In this document: positions 5,881 to 38,291 of the stretch, one piece after another
Layout of the letters: each line of letters starts with the position of its first letter
How positions within the stretch are numbered: position 1 is the stretch's first letter
Virus record (IMG/VR): IMGVR_UViG_2877263951_000005
Length of the DNA stretch: 41,232 bases
From: a virus
Lineage: Duplodnaviria; Heunggongvirae; Uroviricota; Caudoviricetes
Strand: one strand, 5' to 3'
Notes under the pieces: generated by a model
The model's input: only the letters and a program-made list of their open reading frames with translations
Database searches by the model: none
What the model was told of the DNA's origin: nothing
Translations under genes and position numbers: made by a program

Positions 5881-5902
5881 AACCCGCTTTGGCGGGTTTT
5901 TT
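5881..5902 (+). terminator. hok mRNA terminator
   Basis: aacccgc-tttg-gcgggtt plus a T run. Confidence 0.75.
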
Positions 5903-6048
5903 GTTGCGTGCTGAATACGCAGGGTGAAAAATAACCATATATTTGATTATATACACAACAAAAAATAAAAGTCATTGTACTTGCACATTAAACAATCAAA
6001 TATACGGCGTGAAATAAATATTTATCAGATTAATATTTTTGTCTCTAT

Positions 6049-6300
6049 GTGGATATAACCGTTTGTACTTATAAACCTGGGGGCATCGTGGAAAAAATAA
6101 AGAAACTATTTAGTAGCAAATACGCAGTCATACGTCGTGATGACCTGTCAGTTATAGTCGAAATGGATTACTTCCCTGAAACCCCAAAATCAATAATGTA
6201 TCGTAATGGTCGAAAGGCAATTTTTTTACCGATGAGGGTAAGTGACATTATGGGAAATGATAAACTGCTGGATGAATTGCGAGTCAGAGCATCCTGTTAG
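6049..6300 (+). CDS. Hypothetical protein (AT-rich moron-like ORF)
   Basis: 83-aa ORF with a GTG start after a very AT-rich leader. Its stop codon lies inside the IS1 target duplication, so the ORF is intact. No family recognised. Confidence 0.35.
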   Translation: MDITVCTYKPGGIVEKIKKLFSSKYAVIRRDDLSVIVEMDYFPETPKSIMYRNGRKAIFLPMRVSDIMGNDKLLDELRVRASC

Positions 6301-10894: not shown

Positions 10895-10971
10895 GGCCCT
10901 TTAGCTCAGTTGGTCAGAGCGAGCGACTCATAATCGCCAGGTCGCTGGTTCAAGTCCAGCAAGGGCCACCA
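10895..10971 (+). tRNA. tRNA with CAU anticodon (ileX/ileZ-like tRNA-Ile2, or Met)
   Basis: 77 nt, ggcccttt...ctcataa...ttcaagtccagcaagggccacca. Very similar to E. coli ileX as I recall it. Confidence 0.85.
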
Positions 10972-10972
10972 A

Positions 10973-11049
10973 CCACCACTAGCTCATCCGGATAGAGCAT
11001 CAACCTTCTAAGTTGACGGTGCGAGGTTCGAGTCCTCGGTGGTGGGCCA
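10973..11049 (+). tRNA. tRNA-Arg (UCU)
   Basis: 77 nt with anticodon loop cttctaa, T-arm cgagg-ttcgagt-cctcg, and acceptor ccaccac/gtggtgg (C1-G72). Confidence 0.8.
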
Positions 11050-11051
11050 GC

Positions 11052-11127
<76 letters not shown>

Positions 11128-11130
11128 TAT

Positions 11131-11205
<75 letters not shown>

Positions 11206-11319
11206 TGACCTTTCTTAAAGTACTCCAACCTACTGAATCCTAAGGGATACGGCTTTAAGCCTCCTTGCAGAGTTACTTACTGTAACCCACTGTGTAACCC
11301 TCTCAGGGCATACAGACAT

Positions 11320-12924
11320 ATGATTCAGCTATCCAGTAGTCACAAACTTCCAGCAGTCTACTATCTCTACCAGCGTAACGGCGTCTACTACTTCCGTCTT
11401 AGGGTCAGACAATCAAACAATGATAGAATGACCTCAATATCATTACGGACCAAGGATAGACGCACCGCTATGGCTTACTCAAGGCACATAAAGGCAGCAC
11501 TCAAGGCAATACACGCAGACAGACCCAACGCTACCTACGAGGAAATGAGGGAACACCTTAAGGACATCGCTGAGTGTGAACTGTCTATGGGCCGTTCAGA
11601 TCTCTTTGAGCCTGACATGAGGGATATCTACCGGGACCAATACGGAGAACTTGGTGAGAGCCTTACCGATGCTCTGGCTAGTGAGCCGCTAAGCATTGAC
11701 CAGCATCGTTACATCAATGAGGCCCTGAAGGTGCTAAAAGCCTGTATGAGGCGTATCGAAGCGGGAGACAGTCAGCCTCTGATAGATTACGTCGATCTTT
11801 TTAATGATATTGATAGGCAAGATAACCAAGCAGACTCTGTGTCCCTATCTGTTAATGCTCCAGAAGTAAAACCAGAAGTTACGCCTAGCATTACCATAGC
11901 GAGCCTCTTTGAGCAATACGAAGCGGAGAACTATCAGAACTGGAAGCCTGCAACCTTAAGGGAAAACAAGGCGTCACACGCTGCGTTAATCGAAATATTC
12001 GACCATCTGGGTCTCAATGCAGACGCTAACAGGGCTGACATGCTTAGGGTCCGTGATGTGCTCCAGCAGTTACCTAGGAACCGTAAGCAGCGCTTCAAGG
12101 ATGTCCCACTTGCTGACCTGTTGAGCCGTGAAGATAAGACAGATTGTCTGGATGTCGTTACCATCAACAACAAGTATCTTATTAAGATGGCTGCTGTCTT
12201 TAGGTGGGCTGTGCGCAATGACTTGATTAAAAAGAACATGACTGAGGGTCTGGAGCTTAAAGTCCCTCAGCGTAAAGCCTCAGGGGCCCGTAACGCCTTC
12301 TCTACGGAGCAGGTGGGGCAACTACTGGTCGCAGCTAAGGCATACTCTCAGAAGACCTCTGGTAAGCCGTATCATTATTATGTTACCGCCTTGGCTGCTA
12401 TCACTGGGGCGAGACTCAATGAAATAGCCCAACTACAGGTCAAAGACGTCAGGACCACTGAGGCGGGAACCGTTTATATTCATATCAATGAAGACGATAG
12501 TAGTCTACCCGGTAAGAGCATCAAGAACGCTCATAGTGACCGCTGTGTGCCTCTGGTCGATGGGGCCTATGGTTTTATATTGGCTGACTTTATGGCGCTT
12601 GTAGAGACCCGTAGAGGCGCTGACGGTGATGACGCTATGGTGTTCGATGGTCTGCGTCTCATGAAGAACGGTTACGGTGAGCAGGTGAGTAAATGGTTTA
12701 ATCGGACGTTGTTGCCTAAAGTCCTCGTAGACCGTAGCGGCTTAGCGTTTCACTCGTTTAGACATACAGTTGCGACCCAGTTAAAACAACATGGGGTCGA
12801 GTTGGTGTATGCACAGGCGATCATGGGGCATAGTTCAGGGTCTATTACGTACGACCGTTATGCTAAAGAGGTCGAGGTTGATAGGCTGGTCAATGTGATG
12901 GCTGATGTTTATAAGGAGACCTAG
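11320..12924 (+). CDS. Tyrosine recombinase/integrase (unusually long, 534 aa)
   Basis: Catalytic signature ...ITGARLNEI..., HSFRHTVAT, GHSSGSITYDRY. It lies 114 bp downstream of tRNA-Gly. Nucleotide style is rich in cttaag/cctaagg words. Confidence 0.85.
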   Translation: MIQLSSSHKLPAVYYLYQRNGVYYFRLRVRQSNNDRMTSISLRTKDRRTAMAYSRHIKAALKAIHADRPNATYEEMREHLKDIAECELSMGRSDLFEPDMRDIYRDQYGELGESLTDALASEPLSIDQHRYINEALKVLKACMRRIEAGDSQPLIDYVDLFNDIDRQDNQADSVSLSVNAPEVKPEVTPSITIASLFEQYEAENYQNWKPATLRENKASHAALIEIFDHLGLNADANRADMLRVRDVLQQLPRNRKQRFKDVPLADLLSREDKTDCLDVVTINNKYLIKMAAVFRWAVRNDLIKKNMTEGLELKVPQRKASGARNAFSTEQVGQLLVAAKAYSQKTSGKPYHYYVTALAAITGARLNEIAQLQVKDVRTTEAGTVYIHINEDDSSLPGKSIKNAHSDRCVPLVDGAYGFILADFMALVETRRGADGDDAMVFDGLRLMKNGYGEQVSKWFNRTLLPKVLVDRSGLAFHSFRHTVATQLKQHGVELVYAQAIMGHSSGSITYDRYAKEVEVDRLVNVMADVYKET

Positions 12925-13011
12925 AGGAGACCATAGTCTAGGATGACACTTACTACAGACCTGTGTGGTCATGTTTTTGACTCATAGTTTTCTCTACTTG
13001 TCAAGGATAAT

Positions 13012-13034
13012 TAATACGACTCACTATAGGGAGA
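13012..13034 (+). promoter_or_regulatory. Phage T7 class III consensus promoter (23/23), +1 = G13029
   Basis: taatacgactcactatagggaga is an exact match to the T7 RNAP consensus from -17 to +6. The flanks do not resemble the common vector contexts I know. Confidence 0.85.
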
Positions 13035-13231
13035 AGGGACACAAAAAGTTTTCTCTTCTAGGACAACTAACCGTAACTTATCGCATCCTTTCAGGGGCGG
13101 GATGACCAATTACAGACACCAAGCGTTCTACTTAAAGTGAATGCTTCCTGTGTGCTCTGGGTCAGTCGATAAGTGAATAGCAATAAGACACAATCATCTT
13201 AATTATGGTCTCTAGTCCCTACAGGGGCTTA

Positions 13232-13371
13232 ACTTAAAGTTAACTTAAAGACACAATTAAAGATTAACTTATAGTATTACTTAAAGTTAACTTAAAGACA
13301 CAATTAGAGATTAACTTTAAGTATTAAATAAAAGATTTAATTAAAGACCAATTAAAGATTAACTCTAAGGG
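13232..13371 (+). repeat. AT-rich tandem repeat, 47-bp unit x ~2.9, built of cttaaag/attaaag words
   Basis: 13232-13278 and 13279-13325 are 44/47 identical. A degenerate third copy runs to ~13371. Confidence 0.9.
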
Positions 13372-13421
13372 AATACCTTAAGGGGTGATGATATTTATAA
13401 TAATCAATCACCAAACCTATA

Positions 13422-13492
13422 GGTCTTCTCTAGGGTCTCTCTATAGGTCTTCTCTATGGTCTCTCTATAGGTCTCTCTAGGGTCTCCTCTAG
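13422..13492 (+). repeat. Iteron array: 6 tandem 11-12-nt units ggtct(t)ctcta(t/g)
   Basis: ggtcttctcta gggtctctctata ggtcttctctat ggtctctctata ggtctctctag ggtctcctctag. Confidence 0.9.
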
Positions 13493-13512
13493 GCATTACC
13501 CCCAGAAGCTAA

Positions 13513-13552
13513 CTCTATGGCCCTCTATGGTCCTCTATGGTCCTCTATGGCC
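13513..13552 (+). repeat. 4 tandem 10-nt units ctctatgg(c/t)c
   Basis: ctctatggcc ctctatggtc ctctatggtc ctctatggcc. Confidence 0.9.
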
Positions 13553-13600
13553 CTGTACGTCATTCTTTAGGATGCCCTGTAGTTTCGTATAGCCTGATGC

Positions 13601-13646
13601 CTAGAGAGACCCTAGAGAGACCCTAGAGTGGCTCCTAGAGAGACCC
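13601..13646 (+). repeat. Inverted iteron array: ctagagagacc x3 plus one degenerate copy
   Basis: ctagagagacc is the exact reverse complement of the ggtctctctag unit at 13470-13480. A further inverted copy, ctagaggagacc, overlaps the integrase stop codon at 12921-12932. Confidence 0.9.
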
Positions 13647-13807
13647 TCCCAGTAGCTCCGCACAGCTACATCGTCATCATCATAGTATTCAATCTCAAAG
13701 TCATTCTGTTTGCATCCTGTTGTCCTGCTGGTCTCCCTTCGCTTGGGGACTTTGAGTAGGTCAGTGGGGGTGCGACTTCAGGGTGCAAACAAAAAGGAAA
13801 TCAAGCG

Positions 13808-13990
13808 ATGTCTCAACAACCACAACAACCACAACAACCACAACAACCACAACAACCACAACAAGAAATCAGCATCATTAACCTCGACCAGCTTGTGTCC
13901 ATGACCTCAGTTGAAATTGCTGAGCTGACAGGCAAGGAGCACCGAAATGTCCTTCGTGATATTCGTAAGATGCTCGAAGAACTTAACGCG
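13808..13990 (+). pseudogene. Rha-family (Phage_pRha-like) regulatory protein, N-terminal 61 codons only, cut by IS1
   Basis: MSQ(QPQ)n...MTSVEIAELTGKEHRNVLRDIRKMLEELNA, then an IS1 end at 13991. RBS aaggaaa is upstream. Confidence 0.65.
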
Positions 13991-14045
13991 GGTAATGCTG
14001 CCAACTTACTGATTTAGTGTATGATGGTGATTTTAAGGTGCTTGC

Positions 14046-18611: not shown

Positions 18612-19469
18612 CTAATTGGGTGATAACAGATCCTGTGTATGGGCGTTTCCCTTTGTGCGTGCGTTGATGCTGGTAACGGTAAACGTCATGATGAACACGA
18701 CCGCGAATAAGACGACAATCGTCGGAGCTGGTGCGCTGTCGATAAAAAAGGACAGCCAGACACCAGTCATTGACACTATTACCGATATGCCAGTCGCCAG
18801 TAGGAGCGCAATATGAAAGCGTTGTGTCAGGAGTACTGCAATGGCGCCAGGCGCAATGAGCAGAGAAATAGAGAGAATGATACCTACTGCTTTCAGCGTC
18901 GCCACAATGGTCAGGGAAACCATGCACAGCAGCCCATAATGCAGCCATCTCGTATGCAAACCGCTTACCTGCGCCTGTTGATAATCAAAGCTGAACAGCA
19001 AAAAATCCCGCCATTTTACGCTAATAACAAGTGTAACCAGCCCGGCAATAATCACCGTCTGGATTATATCGCCGATGGTTATCCCGAGCATGTCGCCGAA
19101 AAGAATATGGTCAAGATGTACGTCTGGTTTAATTGCAATATACAAGATCAGACCTGCGGCAAACATGCCAGAAAAAACAATCCCCATAACTGTATCTTGC
19201 TTGATTCGGCTGTTGTCTTTCAGGTATCCCGTCGCCACCGCGCAGAATACTCCGGCGACGAATGCCCCTGTAGCCAGAGGTAACCCCAGAATCCAGGTAA
19301 GCACGATGCCAGGAAAAACCGCATGACTCATCGCGTCACCCATCAGTGCCCAACCTTTCAGGACCAGAAAGACCGACAGCAGCGCACAGGGTATGGAAAC
19401 TACCAGTGAAATCAGCAGTGCGTGACTCATAAAGGTGAACTGCAGTGGCTCCAGTAATAATGCCATCAT
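18612..19469 (-). CDS. sitD: SitD, Mn/Fe ABC transporter permease
   Basis: 285-aa polytopic ABC-3 permease, last gene of the four-gene operon, with 4-nt overlap with sitC. Confidence 0.9.
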   Translation of the reverse strand: MMALLLEPLQFTFMSHALLISLVVSIPCALLSVFLVLKGWALMGDAMSHAVFPGIVLTWILGLPLATGAFVAGVFCAVATGYLKDNSRIKQDTVMGIVFSGMFAAGLILYIAIKPDVHLDHILFGDMLGITIGDIIQTVIIAGLVTLVISVKWRDFLLFSFDYQQAQVSGLHTRWLHYGLLCMVSLTIVATLKAVGIILSISLLIAPGAIAVLLTQRFHIALLLATGISVIVSMTGVWLSFFIDSAPAPTIVVLFAVVFIMTFTVTSINARTKGNAHTQDLLSPN

Positions 19470-20323
19470 GAGCGATCCTCCAGCGCTTTATGCGCACGCC
19501 GACGATTTGCCAAAAGTCCATGGGTGGGCGCAAATACAAATGCTAAAAGAAACAGCAGTGTCTGCGCCACCACGATGATTCCACCTGTCGCGCCGTCCAG
19601 AAAGTAACTGACCCACGCGCCGAGGAAACTGGTTACACTGCCAATAGTTACAGCAATTATGAGCAGGCGGGGAAAACGATCGGTTAACAACCATGCTGTT
19701 GCACCGGGAGTCACCACCAGACAGATCACCAGAAAGGCACCAACCGTTTGCAGCGCCGCAACGGTCGAAACCGACAGCAGGGTGAAGAAGAGGATTTTTA
19801 ATCTGCCCGGATGTAATCCAATAGCACGGGCGTGATTCTCGTCGAAAAAGGTCACCATAAGATCTTTCCATTTGAAAAAAAGCACGATGATCGAGAGAAT
19901 GCCAATGATAGTGAGTTGCAGGATATCCGCCGGATCGATTGCCAGAATATTGCCCAGGACGATGGTCTGAATGTTCACGGATGTCGGGTTCAATGACACC
20001 ATAAACAGCCCCAGGCCAAAAAAGGACGAGAAGATCAGGCCGATGATGGCATCTTCTTTTAAGCGGGTGCGTTGGTTAAGAAACAGCATGCTGCCCGCTG
20101 CCAGTCCGCCGGAAAAGAAGGCTCCCAGAGAAAACGGAAGCCCCAGCATATATGCCCCCGCAACACCCGGGACAATAGAGTGCGACAGCGCATCGCCAAT
20201 CAGCGACCAGCCTTTTAGCATCAGATAGCATGACAGGAAAGCGCAGAGACCGCCGACCATTGCCGAGACCCACATCGCATTGAGCATATATTCATAGCTG
20301 AAGGGTTCCAGTAGCACGTTCAT
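19466..20323 (-). CDS. sitC: SitC, Mn/Fe ABC transporter permease
   Basis: 285-aa ABC-3 permease paralogous to SitD. Confidence 0.9.
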
Positions 20324-21147
20324 CTTGCTTCCCTCTGCACCGCTGACGGTCGATGTGCCACAAAAGGGCGTTCATCGTCAGTAATAATGCTTTCTTCCGA
20401 GCCGTTAAGTGTGACATGGCGCAGTACGCCGCTAAAAGCCAGCTCCAGGTTCTCGGCTGTAAAAGTGGTGTCTGTCGGCCCGCTTGCCAGGACGGTGCCT
20501 TTGACCATGACCGTATAATCGCAAAATGTCGTGACTGAGCCGAGATTGTGCGTTGAGACAAGCATCGTTTTGCCTTCCGCGCGTAACTCCCTCAACAGGC
20601 TGATGATTTTCGCTTCGGTTTTCACATCAACGCCGGTAAAAGGTTCATCCAGCAGGATCACATCACCCTGCTGTGCAATTGCTCTCGCCAGAAAGACGCG
20701 TTTCTTTTGTCCACCGGAAAGCTCGCCGATTTGACGATGGCGAAAATCCACCATATCGACACGTTCCAGCGCATCGGTGACAATCTGACGATCCCTCTTT
20801 TTGGCTATACGCAACATACCCATATGCCCATAGCGGCCCATCATCACCACATCTTCCACCAGTACAGGAAATGACCAGTCAACCTCTTCTGACTGAGGGA
20901 CGTAGGCAACCAGGTTTTTCTGTAGCGCCTGTCGCGTGGGAATACCCAGAACAGATATCTTTCCGCTGGTCAGACGCACAAATCCCATAATCGCTTTAAA
21001 CAACGTCGATTTTCCGGAACCGTTTACCCCAACCAGAGCGGCAATAGATCCACTTGGTACTGTGAAGGATGCATCGCGCAGTGCTGTGTGCCCGTTACGC
21101 CAGGTGACAGTAACATCATTAACGACAATGCCTGCAGATTGCATCAT
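20320..21147 (-). CDS. sitB: SitB, ABC transporter ATP-binding protein
   Basis: Walker [10 protein letters not shown], signature LSGGQKKR, Walker B ILLDEPF. Confidence 0.92.
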
Positions 21148-22061
21148 TATTTCTCCCTTTTCCCGGCTTTAATTCCCTGTACCAGCGTACTGGTAGTAAC
21201 CTTAAGAAGGTCGATATACGTAGGTACCGGGCCGTTTTCTGTGCTCAGGGAATCGACATAGAGCACACCGCCGTAGTGTGCGCCGGTTTCACGCGCAACC
21301 TGACGCGCTGGTTTATCGGAAATCGTACTCTCGCTAAAGACTGCCGGGATATGATTTTTCTTAACTATATCAACAACCTTACGTACCTGCTGCGGTGTTC
21401 CTTGTTGATCGGCATTAATCGGCCACAGATAAAGCTCTTTTAGCCCCAAATCGCGTGCGAGATAAGAAAAAGCCCCTTCACTGGTGACCATCCATCGCTG
21501 ATTCTCAGGGAGTTCCGTAATCTGCTTACGCAGGGGGGCAAGGGTTTGGGTAATCTTGGCTTTATAAGTATCGGCATTACGTTGGTAGGTTTGTGCATTT
21601 GCCGGATCGTATTTTATCAACGCATCACGAATATTATCGACGTAAATCAGAGCATTATCTGGCGACATCCATGCATGGGGATTAGGTTTGCCCTCATAGG
21701 GTCCTTCGGTGATCCCTACTGGCGTCACACCCGAAGAGACAATTACTTCTGGAACCCCATTGAGATGCTGGTAAAAGCGTTGGAACCACAATTCCAGATT
21801 CATACCATTGGCGAGAATCAGTTGTGCCCCCTGCGCACGTTTAATATCGCCAGGGGTAGGCTGATACTCATGAATTTCTGCACCAGGCTTGGTTATGGAT
21901 GAGACTTCTGCAGCATCTCCAGCCACGTTTTTGGCCATATCCGCGATGATGGTAAATGTTGTAATGACCTTGAATTTTTCAGTTGCACTTGCCTGAAATG
22001 CGATCGAGCAGGTGAGGGCGAGGCACCCCAAGAGCATGGTTACTTTTTTTATTGAGTGCAT
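21147..22061 (-). CDS. sitA: SitA, periplasmic Mn/Fe-binding protein
   Basis: 304 aa with a signal peptide and a cluster-9 (PsaA/MntC-type) SBP. It is the first gene of the operon. Confidence 0.92.
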
Positions 22062-36575: not shown

Positions 36576-38291
36576 TTATGAATGGTGCAGTTGTGAGCCG
36601 TTTTCAGACAATCGCAGGGCCAGTACCTCGTCAGTCAGCTGACGGTAAATCTGCTGTTCAGTCTCACGCATCACCTGTGCTCCTGCTTCCCTCTCCGCAT
36701 CCGCATCATCGCTCAGACCGGATGCTTTCAGCCGGTCAGCCACCCTCTGAGGGTACTCATTCTCCAGCATCTCATATTTCTGCTCTTCTGCCTGCGCCCA
36801 GCGGTCAGCTTCCGTACGCTTCAGTACAGCATGCCATGGTCCCCAGAGGGAGAACCAGTCCGTAAATTCATTCTCTTCACGGCTTCTGACCATGGCTTCG
36901 GCAGTGCGGAGGTCATTTGCTGTCACTCCCGACACGCCATAGAAACGCATTTCCTTCACGGCAGTGGAGAGCTGAAGTTTCTCTGCGAGCATGGTCTGGA
37001 AGGCCAGGTAGACTTCTATCTCATCCACAAAATGGAGAGTTCTGACTTTATCCCGGGCAATATCCTCCAGAATTTCGAGGCGGAACATTTCCCTGCCCAG
37101 GGAGAGCAGAGCGCCGGTATCATTATCGAAAAGGCCTTCTGATGCCTGATGGACCAGGAGGGTTTTCCGGAGATTGTTCCATGTGAGCGCGACACGGTCC
37201 TCACAGCTTTCAGTGGCATCAGCAGCAACAGCGAAAGACTGCTGTCGAAGCTCTGCAGAGGTACTGAGTTTTTCCAGCCATGCAGCGACCTGTTCACGGA
37301 ATCCGGAGGTATTGCGTGCAGAGACGGTATCGGAAAGGCGGTCAAGGAACGCGGAAAAGGTGTTGGCGTGCTCTTCATGTTCAAAAGCATGCCATATCTG
37401 TGATACATCAGATTGTTTGTTTTCCGGGAACCATGCTGTCACGGCATCAGCCAGGGGGCGATGGAGTGTATTCTGTTGTCCGTCACTCATGGAGAAGTAA
37501 ATCCGTGGGCCGTGGTAGTCCGGTTGGGCGGTTTGTTGCGACAGAGACTCCCTGATCCGTGAGGACAGAGGATTGTCTTCGAGGATGATAGTGCAGGTCG
37601 GATCAAGGCTAAGTATATTTTCCGGAATGTGTGTGATGCGATTCTCGCGGCACCGGAAAAATATCTCGGTTTCCTCTGAGTGATGATTTCTTACAGGTAC
37701 GGCTGGTAGGCTTTCCAGAAGATTAGTACTTACATCGAGCGCTTCCAGTGATTCAGGTAACTCAGGGAGAAATGTCAGCTGGTTATTTCTTACTGAGAGC
37801 ACTTCCAGCGATGTAGGTAATTCAGGAAGCATGGTTAGCTGATTGTTATCTGCATTAATATATTCCAGCAATGCAGGCAATTCAGGAAGCATGGTTAGTT
37901 GGTTGTTATCTACATCAAGATGTTTCAGAGATGCGGGTAATTCAGGAAGTGTTGACAGGCGATTGTCACAGGCGTCAAGGTATTCCAGCGATGCTGGCAA
38001 TTCTGGTAATGATATTAGGGCATTCTGAGTAATTTCCAGAACAGTGATTTGAGGTGGTAAGTTGTCAGGTAGCGAGGACAGATTTAAACGATTCAGTTGA
38101 AGCTCACTGAACTGATTGATGAGACATTCTTTAAGTAGGGAGACCGCTTCATTCCGATTTTCACCGGGGAGCGCTTGTTTTTCCCATTTATCCCATGCTG
38201 AAAAGTAATCAGCATATGTACCGGAAATAGTGTTATAAAAAGAATTTTGGGACAATGAAAAGTTATTATTTATCGGTAACATGATGGACAT
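36576..38291 (-). CDS. ipaH: IpaH-family T3SS effector, LRR plus novel E3 ubiquitin ligase (NEL) domain
   Basis: 571 aa with an N-terminal secretion region and LRR repeats (L..LPELP.SL..L). The conserved C-terminus carries the catalytic Cys in ...ADATESCEDRVALTWN... It is an intact ORF. Confidence 0.95.
   Translation of the reverse strand: MSIMLPINNNFSLSQNSFYNTISGTYADYFSAWDKWEKQALPGENRNEAVSLLKECLINQFSELQLNRLNLSSLPDNLPPQITVLEITQNALISLPELPASLEYLDACDNRLSTLPELPASLKHLDVDNNQLTMLPELPALLEYINADNNQLTMLPELPTSLEVLSVRNNQLTFLPELPESLEALDVSTNLLESLPAVPVRNHHSEETEIFFRCRENRITHIPENILSLDPTCTIILEDNPLSSRIRESLSQQTAQPDYHGPRIYFSMSDGQQNTLHRPLADAVTAWFPENKQSDVSQIWHAFEHEEHANTFSAFLDRLSDTVSARNTSGFREQVAAWLEKLSTSAELRQQSFAVAADATESCEDRVALTWNNLRKTLLVHQASEGLFDNDTGALLSLGREMFRLEILEDIARDKVRTLHFVDEIEVYLAFQTMLAEKLQLSTAVKEMRFYGVSGVTANDLRTAEAMVRSREENEFTDWFSLWGPWHAVLKRTEADRWAQAEEQKYEMLENEYPQRVADRLKASGLSDDADAEREAGAQVMRETEQQIYRQLTDEVLALRLSENGSQLHHS

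Follow-up and report, generated by a model that had tools for sequence, protein, structure and literature searches.

A truncated T7 island in Shigella-type DNA, a probable remnant of a satellite of T7-type phages, and the phage-like signals of its control region

Chen & Schneider reportedly proposed (Nucleic Acids Res 2006;34:1133), on the basis of promoter scans and gene comparison, a class of prophage-like islands of 4-13 kb that depend on the polymerase of T7-like phages. The element analyzed here, in the IMG/VR virus record IMGVR_UViG_2877263951_000005 (41,232 nucleotides (nt); hereafter the window, by which the whole stretch is meant), is the same thing as these T7 islands, which combine a tRNA-adjacent integrase gene, T7-type promoters without a polymerase gene and few phage-like genes in 4-13 kb of enterobacterial DNA. 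Unlike the islands of the 2006 class, which carry tandem promoters, the copy in the window has one promoter and is truncated. Given that the class has been known since 2006, the element itself is already known, and a passage of PMC7545054 cites Chen & Schneider (PMC1380254) for the Shigella sit island, that is, for the region of the window. Literature searches on T7 islands and on satellites of T7 or the Autographiviridae yielded no experimental follow-up and no satellite of the T7 group. The satellite anatomy reported here, comprising homology to phage origins, a pseudo-terminal repeat split around attP, a capsid gene, a link to the RAZR defence gene and transfer between species, may be new, and we propose that the non-coding segment downstream of the integrase gene (int) is probably the cis-acting control region of a T7 island, in a copy of a truncated satellite of T7-type phages.

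Some 60 related loci, designated here by L-numbers (L001, L008 and so on), share one order of elements, in which the integrase gene is followed by one to four T7-group promoters, hairpins, an AT-rich block, a palindrome, a leader hairpin and a gene of the Rha/KilA-N type. The promoter of the window is a T7 class III promoter (TAATACGACTCACTATAGGGAGA, 13012-13034, + strand) that matches at 23/23 positions with 0 mismatches, is unique in the window at up to three mismatches and does not occur in 100 shuffles. An initial annotation of the region had called this promoter together with the AT-rich 47-bp repeats, three arrays of short repeats (A, B and C) and an inverted repeat copy at the int stop codon, and all of these features lie where it had placed them. 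The same 23-mer is found six times in T7 (phi6.5, 9, 10, 13, 17 and OR), and the promoter with its first 20 transcribed bases has its best T7 match in phiOR (36/42 nt). Transcription is predicted to start at the G at 13029 and to proceed rightward. Neither sigma-70 promoters nor intrinsic terminators rise above shuffles between 12850 and 13850 and, with no sigma-70-like site beyond chance, the downstream genes look dependent on a phage polymerase. The island in the window holds no open reading frame (ORF) of polymerase size and presents, as T7 islands do, a co-oriented promoter after int and no RNA polymerase gene.

A comparison covered 17 species-representative loci. One to four T7-group promoters are present on the + strand within 3 kb after int in 13 of these loci, and in 16 of the 17 the minus strand of the same 3 kb has no promoter-like site. 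The island promoters share the core CACTATAGG(G/A) and vary in the specificity region (-17 to -8). In particular, the island of K. pneumoniae ATCC 13883 carries AATTAGGGCACACTATAGGGAGA, which is the exact sequence of K11 phi9, phi10 and phi13 and is absent from T7, and additionally holds a T7 consensus promoter and a third type. The promoter of the Proteus island (AATTAACCCACACTATAGGGAGA) is found 12-15 times per genome in the vibriophages ICP3 and N4, and the islands of other genera have further promoter types. A promoter segment of 118-127 bp is tandemly doubled in L002 (13910-14114) and L025 (5633-5880), giving two perfect T7 promoters, and is single in the window, which suggests that promoter number changes through simple duplication. 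Downstream of the arrays, the E. coli islands (L001 14642-14664; L002 14628-14674) carry one to three copies of AATCAATACGA and then CTTACTAATAGGAGACA, a degenerate promoter-like site at the place taken in the Klebsiella and Proteus islands by a genuine second promoter; the window has lost the segment with this site, about 90 bp, by deletion.

The AT-rich block that follows the promoter (13225..13383, + strand, about 84% A+T) is built from 2.9 copies of a 47-bp unit (Tandem Repeats Finder: 13229-13364, period 47, 2.9 copies, 86% matches), the copies at 13232-13278 and 13279-13325 being identical at 44/47 positions (94%). Local alignment of the block to the T7 origin (the AT segment after phi1.1B) gives a z of 6.3 and alignment to the IME15 counterpart a z of 10.4, with 0/300 dinucleotide shuffles reaching the score. 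The T7 genome was also scanned with the island query in every 150-nt interval of both strands. The best interval for the AT-rich block is 5901-6050, at the primary origin (z 8.9), and others are 401-550 (3' of phiOL, z 7.4), 176-325 (z 5.9) and 39226 (3' of phiOR, z 4.3). The best K11 match is likewise the segment 3' of phiOR (z 8.4), and the AT block of the Klebsiella island aligns to T7 5930-6000 with 74.6% identity over 71 nt (E 6.5e-6). The T7 loci matched, each a promoter with an AT-rich segment, are established in T7 biology, through work reported by Tamanoi, Saito, Fuller, Rabkin and Richardson, as the primary and secondary origins. These alignments support the reading of the AT-rich block as a homologue of the AT-rich half of T7-group origins, and the window thus contains both a T7-group promoter and, following it, a T7-origin-related AT-rich segment. 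The initial suggestion that the two together resemble a T7 origin is hence borne out, the best matches in T7 and K11 being promoter-linked origins with z of 7-9.

Across genera, the non-coding DNA consists of the promoter or promoters, a hairpin block H1, the block GGTCAGTCGATAAGTGAATAG, a hairpin H2, the AT-rich block, the palindrome, an extra promoter in some islands, a leader hairpin of about 90 nt and a ribosome-binding site. H1 (CCTTTCAGGGGCGGGATG) lies in the window at 13087-13104, GGTCAGTCGATAAGTGAATAG at 13160-13180 and H2 at 13217-13229, all on the + strand. The leader blocks (13068..13229) are near-identical and in the same order in E. coli, Klebsiella, Rouxiella, Edaphovirga and an island of an unclassified member of the Enterobacteriaceae; the z of their RNA fold is only -1.9. 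A search of IMG/VR with the H1 18-mer (CCTTTCAGGGGCGGGATG) returned 19 loci, many of them on contigs of 38-42 kb, but apart from island copies these share with the island only a hairpin-like stretch and were set aside as chance resemblances on unrelated contigs. Behind the AT-rich block, the palindrome GGTGATGATATTTATAATAATCAATCACC (13384..13412) is kept in islands with T7 or K11 promoters. The palindrome and its flanks match T7 best in one place, the stretch 39276-39365 between phiOR and gene 19.5, with a score of 21 where the genome averages 7.5 (standard deviation 1.4; z ~9.6), and K11 has a palindrome (GTGATGATAATATCAC) at the place that matches the spacer from phiOR to gene 19.5. The leader hairpin (13704..13794, + strand) is an inverted repeat of about 90 nt directly 5' of the first gene's ribosome-binding site. 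Islands of all promoter types have it (L001, L008, L013-L028 and the window), and an RNAalifold analysis of 10 islands predicts 31 pairs for it, five of them with compensatory changes. Rfam returned no family match to it, only sub-threshold plant microRNA noise. The leader hairpin may be an element of translational control or a processing site like the RNase III sites of T7 mRNAs.

The signals that mark the genome ends of T7-group phages are also represented in these islands, although outside the region first considered. When whole islands were compared to T7 and K11 by BLAST with word size 7, CTCTGTGTCCCTATCTGTT was retrieved within int (window 11835-11853), 19/19 nt identical to T7 149-167 and K11 170-188, which corresponds to the right edge of the terminal repeat together with the pause signal (CTCTGTGTCCCT/ATCTGTT, + strand, with the edge before ATCTGTT). 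ATCTGTT is the class II pause signal of the concatemer junction, a role reported by Lyakhov and by Zhang & Studier. The copy is unique in the window and is not found in shuffles. Within int it specifies S-V-S-L-S-V. The rest of the linker is hypervariable, rich in indels and unalignable among integrases, but these six codons are almost unchanged at the nucleotide level (CTA in 14/16, TCT in 15/16); such codon-level conservation inside a variable linker points to selection on the DNA. An 86-nt right-edge query matched 124 phage records with mostly marginal E-values, all 25 listed matches being Klebsiella phages of about 40 kb.

A homologue of the left edge lies about 200-255 nt before attR in ten intact islands. 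The corresponding sequence (...AAAAATCTGAGTG..CTA, cut, TCTCACAGT...) is absent from the window because of its truncation. The island version reads TTTAA.AATTTCCCACAAAAATCTCAGTGCCTA, cut, TCTAACAGT..N15..TTCCCCC and that of T7 TTTAAAATATACCATAAAAATCTGAGTGACTA, cut, TCTCACAGT..N14..TTCCCCC, with 83% identity over 41 nt across the cut site (E 1.7e-5), and the left edge of the Klebsiella island reaches a z of 12.1 at K11 40951 and nowhere else in K11. A 116-nt left-edge query matched 83 phage records, the 25 listed all being genomes of 37.6-40.4 kb, and the matches fall at the terminal repeat where the record is annotated or the match lies at a genome end. Both edges are on the transcribed strand and, on a circle or concatemer, stand in phage order, left then right, around a pseudo-terminal repeat of 847-958 bp (ten islands) that holds attP and the first third of int. 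As the edges are at opposite ends of the integrated island, only the excised form would mimic a concatemer junction. Whole multiples of island size plus repeat amount to 37.9-40.6 kb, a range too wide to count as evidence; multiples near 39 kb agree with the data without being significant. The earlier idea of a cis-acting module for replication and/or packaging by T7 machinery fits the anatomy of the family, but the real end-like signals lie outside the region to which it was assigned, within int and, in intact relatives, near attR. The word ctcatagtt (12981-12989), which had been compared to a T3/T7 terminus, was rejected as one: it lies in the spacer of a short TTGAC...GTCAA inverted repeat upstream of the promoter, and nothing else around it matches T3/T7 ends above background.

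Non-coding DNA related to that of the window is present in 210 of 5,426 complete E. coli genomes, always in the chromosome, and the att flanks of the island were found in 304 complete E. coli genomes. Intact islands span 4,195-7,619 bp between tRNA-Gly direct repeats of 17-27 bp. The E. coli form (4.2-4.4 kb) lies beside actS, between 23-bp direct repeats of the 3' end of tRNA-Gly(CCC). Its integrase gene is followed by non-coding DNA of about 1 kb, or else by RAZR and about 0.5 kb, and then by a KilA-N gene and one small gene. Strains NCTC10973 and NCTC9967 of E. coli carry a 4.2-kb island, and K. pneumoniae ATCC 13883 carries L008, with K11 and T7 promoters, RAZR and a capsid gene; all three strains are available from public collections. 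No polymerase, portal, terminase or tail gene and no recognisable transfer gene was found in the islands examined. The same 6.4-kb island is 99.7-99.9% identical between genomes that share only 74-96% identity in the adjoining core DNA, and transfer of the island between species thus appears, by these identities, to be recent. The islands are in this respect like satellites, in that they have spread horizontally without full sets of genes for a virion and for autonomous replication.

In islands of 6-8 kb, the last gene (326-402 aa; L008 10629-11837; L022 10493-11590; L014 10901-11881; L072 14881-16020; L080 14287-15408) adopts an HK97-type capsid fold in a structure model. In PDB the 50 top matches of the model are without exception encapsulins or capsids of phages (E down to 1e-9); of the named BFVD matches, nearly all are capsid or head proteins; and E is at most 0.001 for 148 matches in PDB and 154 in BFVD. 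At the sequence level, the gene has no Pfam or NCBIfam match and none in a PDB sequence search, and hhalign against T7 gp10 gives a probability of 0.2%. The product is hence predicted to fold as an HK97-type major capsid protein. Upstream of it stands a DUF6971 gene, joined in some islands by an ORF of about 163 aa, and the products of the two could be candidates for scaffold or size determination.

Many islands also carry RAZR/PD-T7-4, a DUF4145 HEPN RNase (E 8e-99), which is encoded upstream of the phage promoters by a gene that overlaps int at the 3' end of the latter (L008 7624-8256; L006 1861-2502; L052-L059, L072-L079 and L080-L089); it is not in the island of the window. RAZR/PD-T7-4 has been shown experimentally to defend against T7 (PMC9519451, PMC13017515). 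The discovery paper remarks that the gene 'often overlaps an integrase gene', and the text of the RAZR paper mentions no integrase, island or genomic T7 promoter in the context of the gene (PMC9519451, PMC13017515). In some E. coli and Klebsiella, a second, different element occupies the same tRNA directly upstream of the T7 island (L056 8539-9759; L078 5277-9730); it encodes a DUF6538 integrase of 406-409 aa and, in L078, also a Phage_cap_E capsid gene.

Array A (13417..13496, + strand) comprises six units, CTATAGGTCT(T)CT / CTAGGGTCTCT (Tandem Repeats Finder: 13417-13491, period 12, 6.2 copies), array B (13513..13554, + strand) four CTCTATGG(C/T)C units (period 10, 4.2 copies) and array C (13597..13647, - strand) three to four GGGTCTCTCTAGG units (13600-13647, period 11, 4.3 copies), with three exact CCTAGAGAGACCCT. 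Array C is the reverse complement of array A, with arms of up to 29 nt at 83% and of 17 nt at 100%, in agreement with its initial description as the inverted partner of A. Further inverted GGTC-word copies (GAGACCTAGAGGAGACCATAG) stand at the int stop codon (12916..12936), where 12920-12936, overlapping that codon, is 94% complementary to 13477-13493; relatives carry from three to about 13 tandem GATGACCATAGGC at this place. The RNA of 13376-13660 folds at -118 kcal/mol, against -84 +/- 5 for shuffled sequences (z = -6.65), arrays A and C forming a very stable long stem if the region is transcribed; with these strong repeat families, the pattern exceeds chance. The single-copy version of E. 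coli has a fold z of -2.0.

What did not hold is the view of the arrays as conserved iterons. The E. coli islands have one CCTATAGGTCTCC in place of array A, two to three CTGTATGGCC for array B and one GCTCAGAGACCC for array C. Array B has 2-4 units in relatives, and in Shigella-type islands arrays A, B and C have 6-7, 3-4 and 3-4 copies, respectively, varying between strains, with seven units of array A in L026. Their single copies in E. coli and variable number between strains indicate that the arrays are slippage-prone, lineage-specific expansions, and in other islands it is different words, elsewhere in the sequence, that have expanded, such as the roughly 13 copies of GATGACCATAGGC behind the int stop. 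By comparison of the islands, the expansions appear to surround an ancestral inverted repeat, GGTCTC...GAGACC, the single-copy GGTC words of which flank a conserved 100-bp core. A likeness of the arrays to T7 ends, also proposed initially, fared no better: the top T7 windows for the arrays are the right- and left-end repeat regions, but their z is 5.2 and unrelated queries reach 5.9, and the single-copy E. coli arrays have no match to the T7 end-repeat regions.

A different property of these repeats concerns the T7 primase, the recognition site of which is 5'-(G/T)(G/T)GTC (PMC12839067, PMC2910064). The core common to all array units is (G/T)GGTC, and the window segment contains 21 T7 primase sites against 4.3 expected. 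When pentamers were counted in the leaders of six islands without large arrays, TGGTC was the most over-represented of all (40 observed, 11.2 expected), and GTGTC was observed 27 times against 9.6 expected. The enrichment of primase words is solid, and a role in priming may be inferred from it; the arrays themselves could be primase sites, a long hairpin or nothing. IS elements (insertion sequences) have repeatedly entered this non-coding region, as with the IS1 in L063 at about 12660, where the palindrome would be, the IS1 that cuts the Rha gene of the window at 13991 and an IS3-family element inside array A of L029 (10354-11600); L060 and L062 are also among the islands hit.

Whether T7 islands as a group are true satellites of virulent T7-group phages, imitating the cis signals of the helper (promoters, origin and pseudo-terminal repeat) instead of encoding regulators, with forms of 6-8 kb that use their own capsid and forms of 4.2 kb that travel as multimers, we judge to be evenly balanced. 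The proposed cycle would begin with an infecting T7-group phage, the RNA polymerase of which would fire the island promoter (13012-13034), as is suggested by the exact consensus and by promoter types that differ between host genera. The helper-type promoters, which can be of several specificities in one island, would thereby act as the induction switch. Transcription would then enter the AT-rich block (13225-13383), where DNA synthesis would be initiated by the polymerase and primase-helicase of the phage, in the manner of phi1.1A/B, phiOL and phiOR, a step to which the homology of the block to T7 origins points. The same transcripts would yield the Rha/KilA-N gene and the cargo behind the conserved leader hairpin. 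Intact islands would be excised through the integrase, upon which the T7 end signals would bracket the pseudo-terminal repeat of 0.85-0.96 kb with attP, and the phage terminase could cut and package the island circle or concatemer, giving particle DNA that ends at ...CTA/TCTAACAGT and ...GTGTCCCT/ATCTGTT. The 6-8 kb islands would contribute their own HK97-fold capsid protein, and the particles would bring the island to new hosts for integration at tRNA-Gly.

Several observations weigh against this proposal. Part of the AT-rich similarity may reflect the TTAAAG-type vocabulary shared by T7 intergenic DNA, and T7 and K11 have terminal repeats of 160-180 bp, about a fifth of the length of the pseudo-terminal repeat. 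The structure model of the capsid protein is only moderately good (pLDDT 64, pTM 0.64, TM-scores 0.3-0.45), and there is no trace of a capsid gene in the 4.2-4.4 kb E. coli islands or in the window; without one, islands of this size would have to be packaged as roughly nine-mers. The attP junction is absent from JGI metagenome contigs and, in full length, from all 304 complete E. coli genomes that bear the island; none of 50,697 phage records contains the island, and an integrase scan of IMG/VR returned prophage calls from isolate genomes only. No excised, tandem or encapsidated form came up in the data sets covered. In addition, no excisionase was recognised in the islands, a phage polymerase cannot drive excision, since the island promoters point away from int when integrated, and T7 degrades host DNA early in infection.

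The absence of an excised form from the metagenome contigs and the 304 E. coli genomes would also be expected if the islands were purely defensive devices, in which the promoter acts as an infection sensor, with T7 RNA polymerase turning on a toxic Rha/KilA-N protein from it (abortive infection), the origin- and end-like DNA serves as decoys for replisome and terminase, and no transfer in particles takes place. This explanation is possible but doubtful. It is in keeping with the anti-T7 RNase RAZR/PD-T7-4 as standard cargo of many islands, with a first gene behind the promoters that always encodes an antirepressor-type DNA binder and with the lack of a sigma-70 promoter that stands out before that gene. 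However, RAZR lies upstream of the promoters and hence is not driven by them, and a sensor-decoy device leaves unexplained the two repeat edges in phage order at constant spacing around attP, the capsid gene of the larger islands and the near-identical islands in different species that lack transfer genes. Given that defensive and satellite life-styles commonly coexist, we regard it as a partial reading, in part compatible with satellites of T7-group phages, rather than as a true alternative.

Promoter, origin, phiOR spacer, repeat edges and capsid-fold gene could also share one phage ancestor, and the islands would then be decayed temperate T7-like prophages that kept these parts and the integrase after the loss of polymerase and structural genes and that have no present function. 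The copy in the window is demonstrably decaying, through IS1. A remnant of this kind is nevertheless unlikely, for across many genera the islands are uniform as a class, measuring 4-8 kb and retaining intact att repeats, with no polymerase, portal, terminase or tail gene in those examined; their promoter specificity has diversified, with several types possible in one island; the order of their blocks is conserved; the junction copy is held at codon level within a variable linker; and transfer between species seems recent. An iteron-type plasmid origin for a lost Rep initiator, which the initial annotation had offered as its alternative and of which direct and inverted short repeats beside an AT-rich region are the textbook picture, is very improbable, since no rep or primase gene could be recognised in intact relatives, E. 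coli islands have the arrays as single copies and close strains differ in copy number, the element is chromosomal (one integrase fragment among 72,556 plasmids) and the AT-rich block is specifically similar to T7 origins.

The window as a whole is Shigella-type DNA, composed of lambdoid prophage remnants (with a DnaC-like protein, DUF977, DUF1367 and a Q antiterminator) and many IS copies, and the closest integrase cluster in a protein database search carries the name Shigella flexneri. The same IS-riddled prophage-remnant region contains sitABCD, which encodes an Mn/Fe ABC transporter (18612-22061, in the gene order sitDCBA), and an ipaH-type gene for a NEL E3 ligase (36576-38291), and the presence of the sit and ipaH genes identifies the window as the Shigella sit/ipaH island area. 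A Met-Arg-Thr-Gly tRNA cluster (10895-11205) sits 3' of the prophage Q-antiterminator region in a lambdoid prophage remnant. Its last member, tRNA-Gly(UCC) (11131..11205, + strand; ARAGORN), provides with its 3' end the 23-bp attL core (11183-11205). The three other islands with a tRNA that were checked (E. coli, Klebsiella and Proteus) are all in the chromosomal tRNA-Gly(CCC), glyU, from the core of which that of the window differs at three positions. The UCC tRNA and these three differences mark the attachment site of the window as a secondary one within a prophage remnant. No second copy of the 23-bp core was found in the window, which thus has no attR and lacks the direct-repeat boundary that belongs to the definition of T7 islands.

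Between the att core and int, at 11280..11299 (+ strand), lie paired TGTAACC words (CTGTAACCCACTGTGTAACC), and the same words flank attL and attR in nine intact islands. These pairs are probably the arm-type sites of the integrase. Since it is the TGTAACC words that flank both att cores, the GGTC arrays, which had been considered for this role, were rejected as integrase arm sites. The tyrosine integrase itself (534 aa, 11320..12924, + strand; Pfam Phage_integrase E 1e-17, DUF6538 just below cut-off) starts 115 nt past tRNA-Gly(UCC), as expected of the tRNA-adjacent integrase of a T7 island. Its identity to integrases from tRNA-Gly(CCC) islands is 83-99%, and 256 homologues at 65-99% identity extend across the Enterobacterales, the hosts of the family including E. 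coli, Shigella, Klebsiella, Citrobacter, Enterobacter, Serratia, Yersinia, Pectobacterium, Lonsdalea, Proteus, Buttiauxella and others.

At the other end, the first gene after the promoter belongs to the Rha family (antirepressor-like; Pfam Phage_pRha E 8e-10), and only its 5' end of 61 codons is left (13808..13990, + strand), against 230-248 aa in intact homologues. IS1, with an end that reads GGTAATGCTGCCAACTTACTGATTTAGTG, starts at 13991 and cuts the gene, and the window contains neither the remainder of the Rha gene nor any cargo, left-edge site or attR. The start of the gene contains a perfect 9-bp tandem repeat (CAACAACCA x 5.7, 13814-13864) that codes for (QQP)n and that the relatives L016 and L018 do not have. 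The copy in the window could at most be transcribed, and perhaps replicated in place, during T7 infection, as a stranded remnant unable to be packaged or moved.

For the window itself the message is modest, that of a broken island copy in the prophage-remnant region around sit and ipaH of Shigella. If the islands are indeed satellites, however, the T7 group would have its first satellite system, one that about 4-6% of complete E. coli genomes carry. Among virulent phages T7 is the best understood, and both biotechnology and phage therapy rely on it as a workhorse, yet the literature searches turned up no satellite of it. The islands would offer a simple model of molecular piracy built almost wholly from borrowed cis signals, and would explain the spread of the anti-T7 nuclease RAZR. 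They would also be of concern for phage therapy in Klebsiella, E. coli and Shigella, where they could blunt T7-like phages and move genes between species.

The systems to which the islands can be compared are, on the one hand, those of T7 itself. As in the island, the origins of T7 (phi1.1A/phi1.1B with the AT segment at about 5.85-6.0 kb, phiOL and phiOR) consist of a promoter and then a similar AT-rich segment. Unlike them, the island has a hairpin-forming leader of about 190 bp between promoter and AT block and a block that is triplicated, and the likeness is one of sequence. T7 reportedly transduces plasmids that carry an origin and the concatemer junction (Chung & Hinkle 1990). The cis elements that are reported to be enough for T7 to package plasmid concatemers have their counterparts in intact islands, which carry homologues of both repeat edges, in phage order and orientation, and a phiOR-like promoter and spacer. 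In contrast to the concatemer junction of T7, the DNA between the island edges is no phage terminal repeat but holds attP and the 5' third of int, one edge lies in coding sequence, and the window keeps that edge only. RAZR/PD-T7-4, in turn, is encoded directly after int and overlapping it in many T7 islands, but not in that of the window.

On the other hand, the islands invite comparison with established phage satellites such as the cf-PICI, the PICMI of the Vibrionaceae (PMC10803314) and the PLE of V. cholerae, which are likewise small, helper-dependent integrase islands at fixed att sites. PLE and PICMI use virulent helpers, cf-PICI make their own capsid, PICMI are packaged as concatemers, and satellites often carry defence genes. 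The T7 islands differ from these satellites in that they have no sequence relationship to them and no recognised dedicated primase or Rep, and in that their activation would proceed via the helper's own promoters and their replication, as proposed here, from a borrowed origin.

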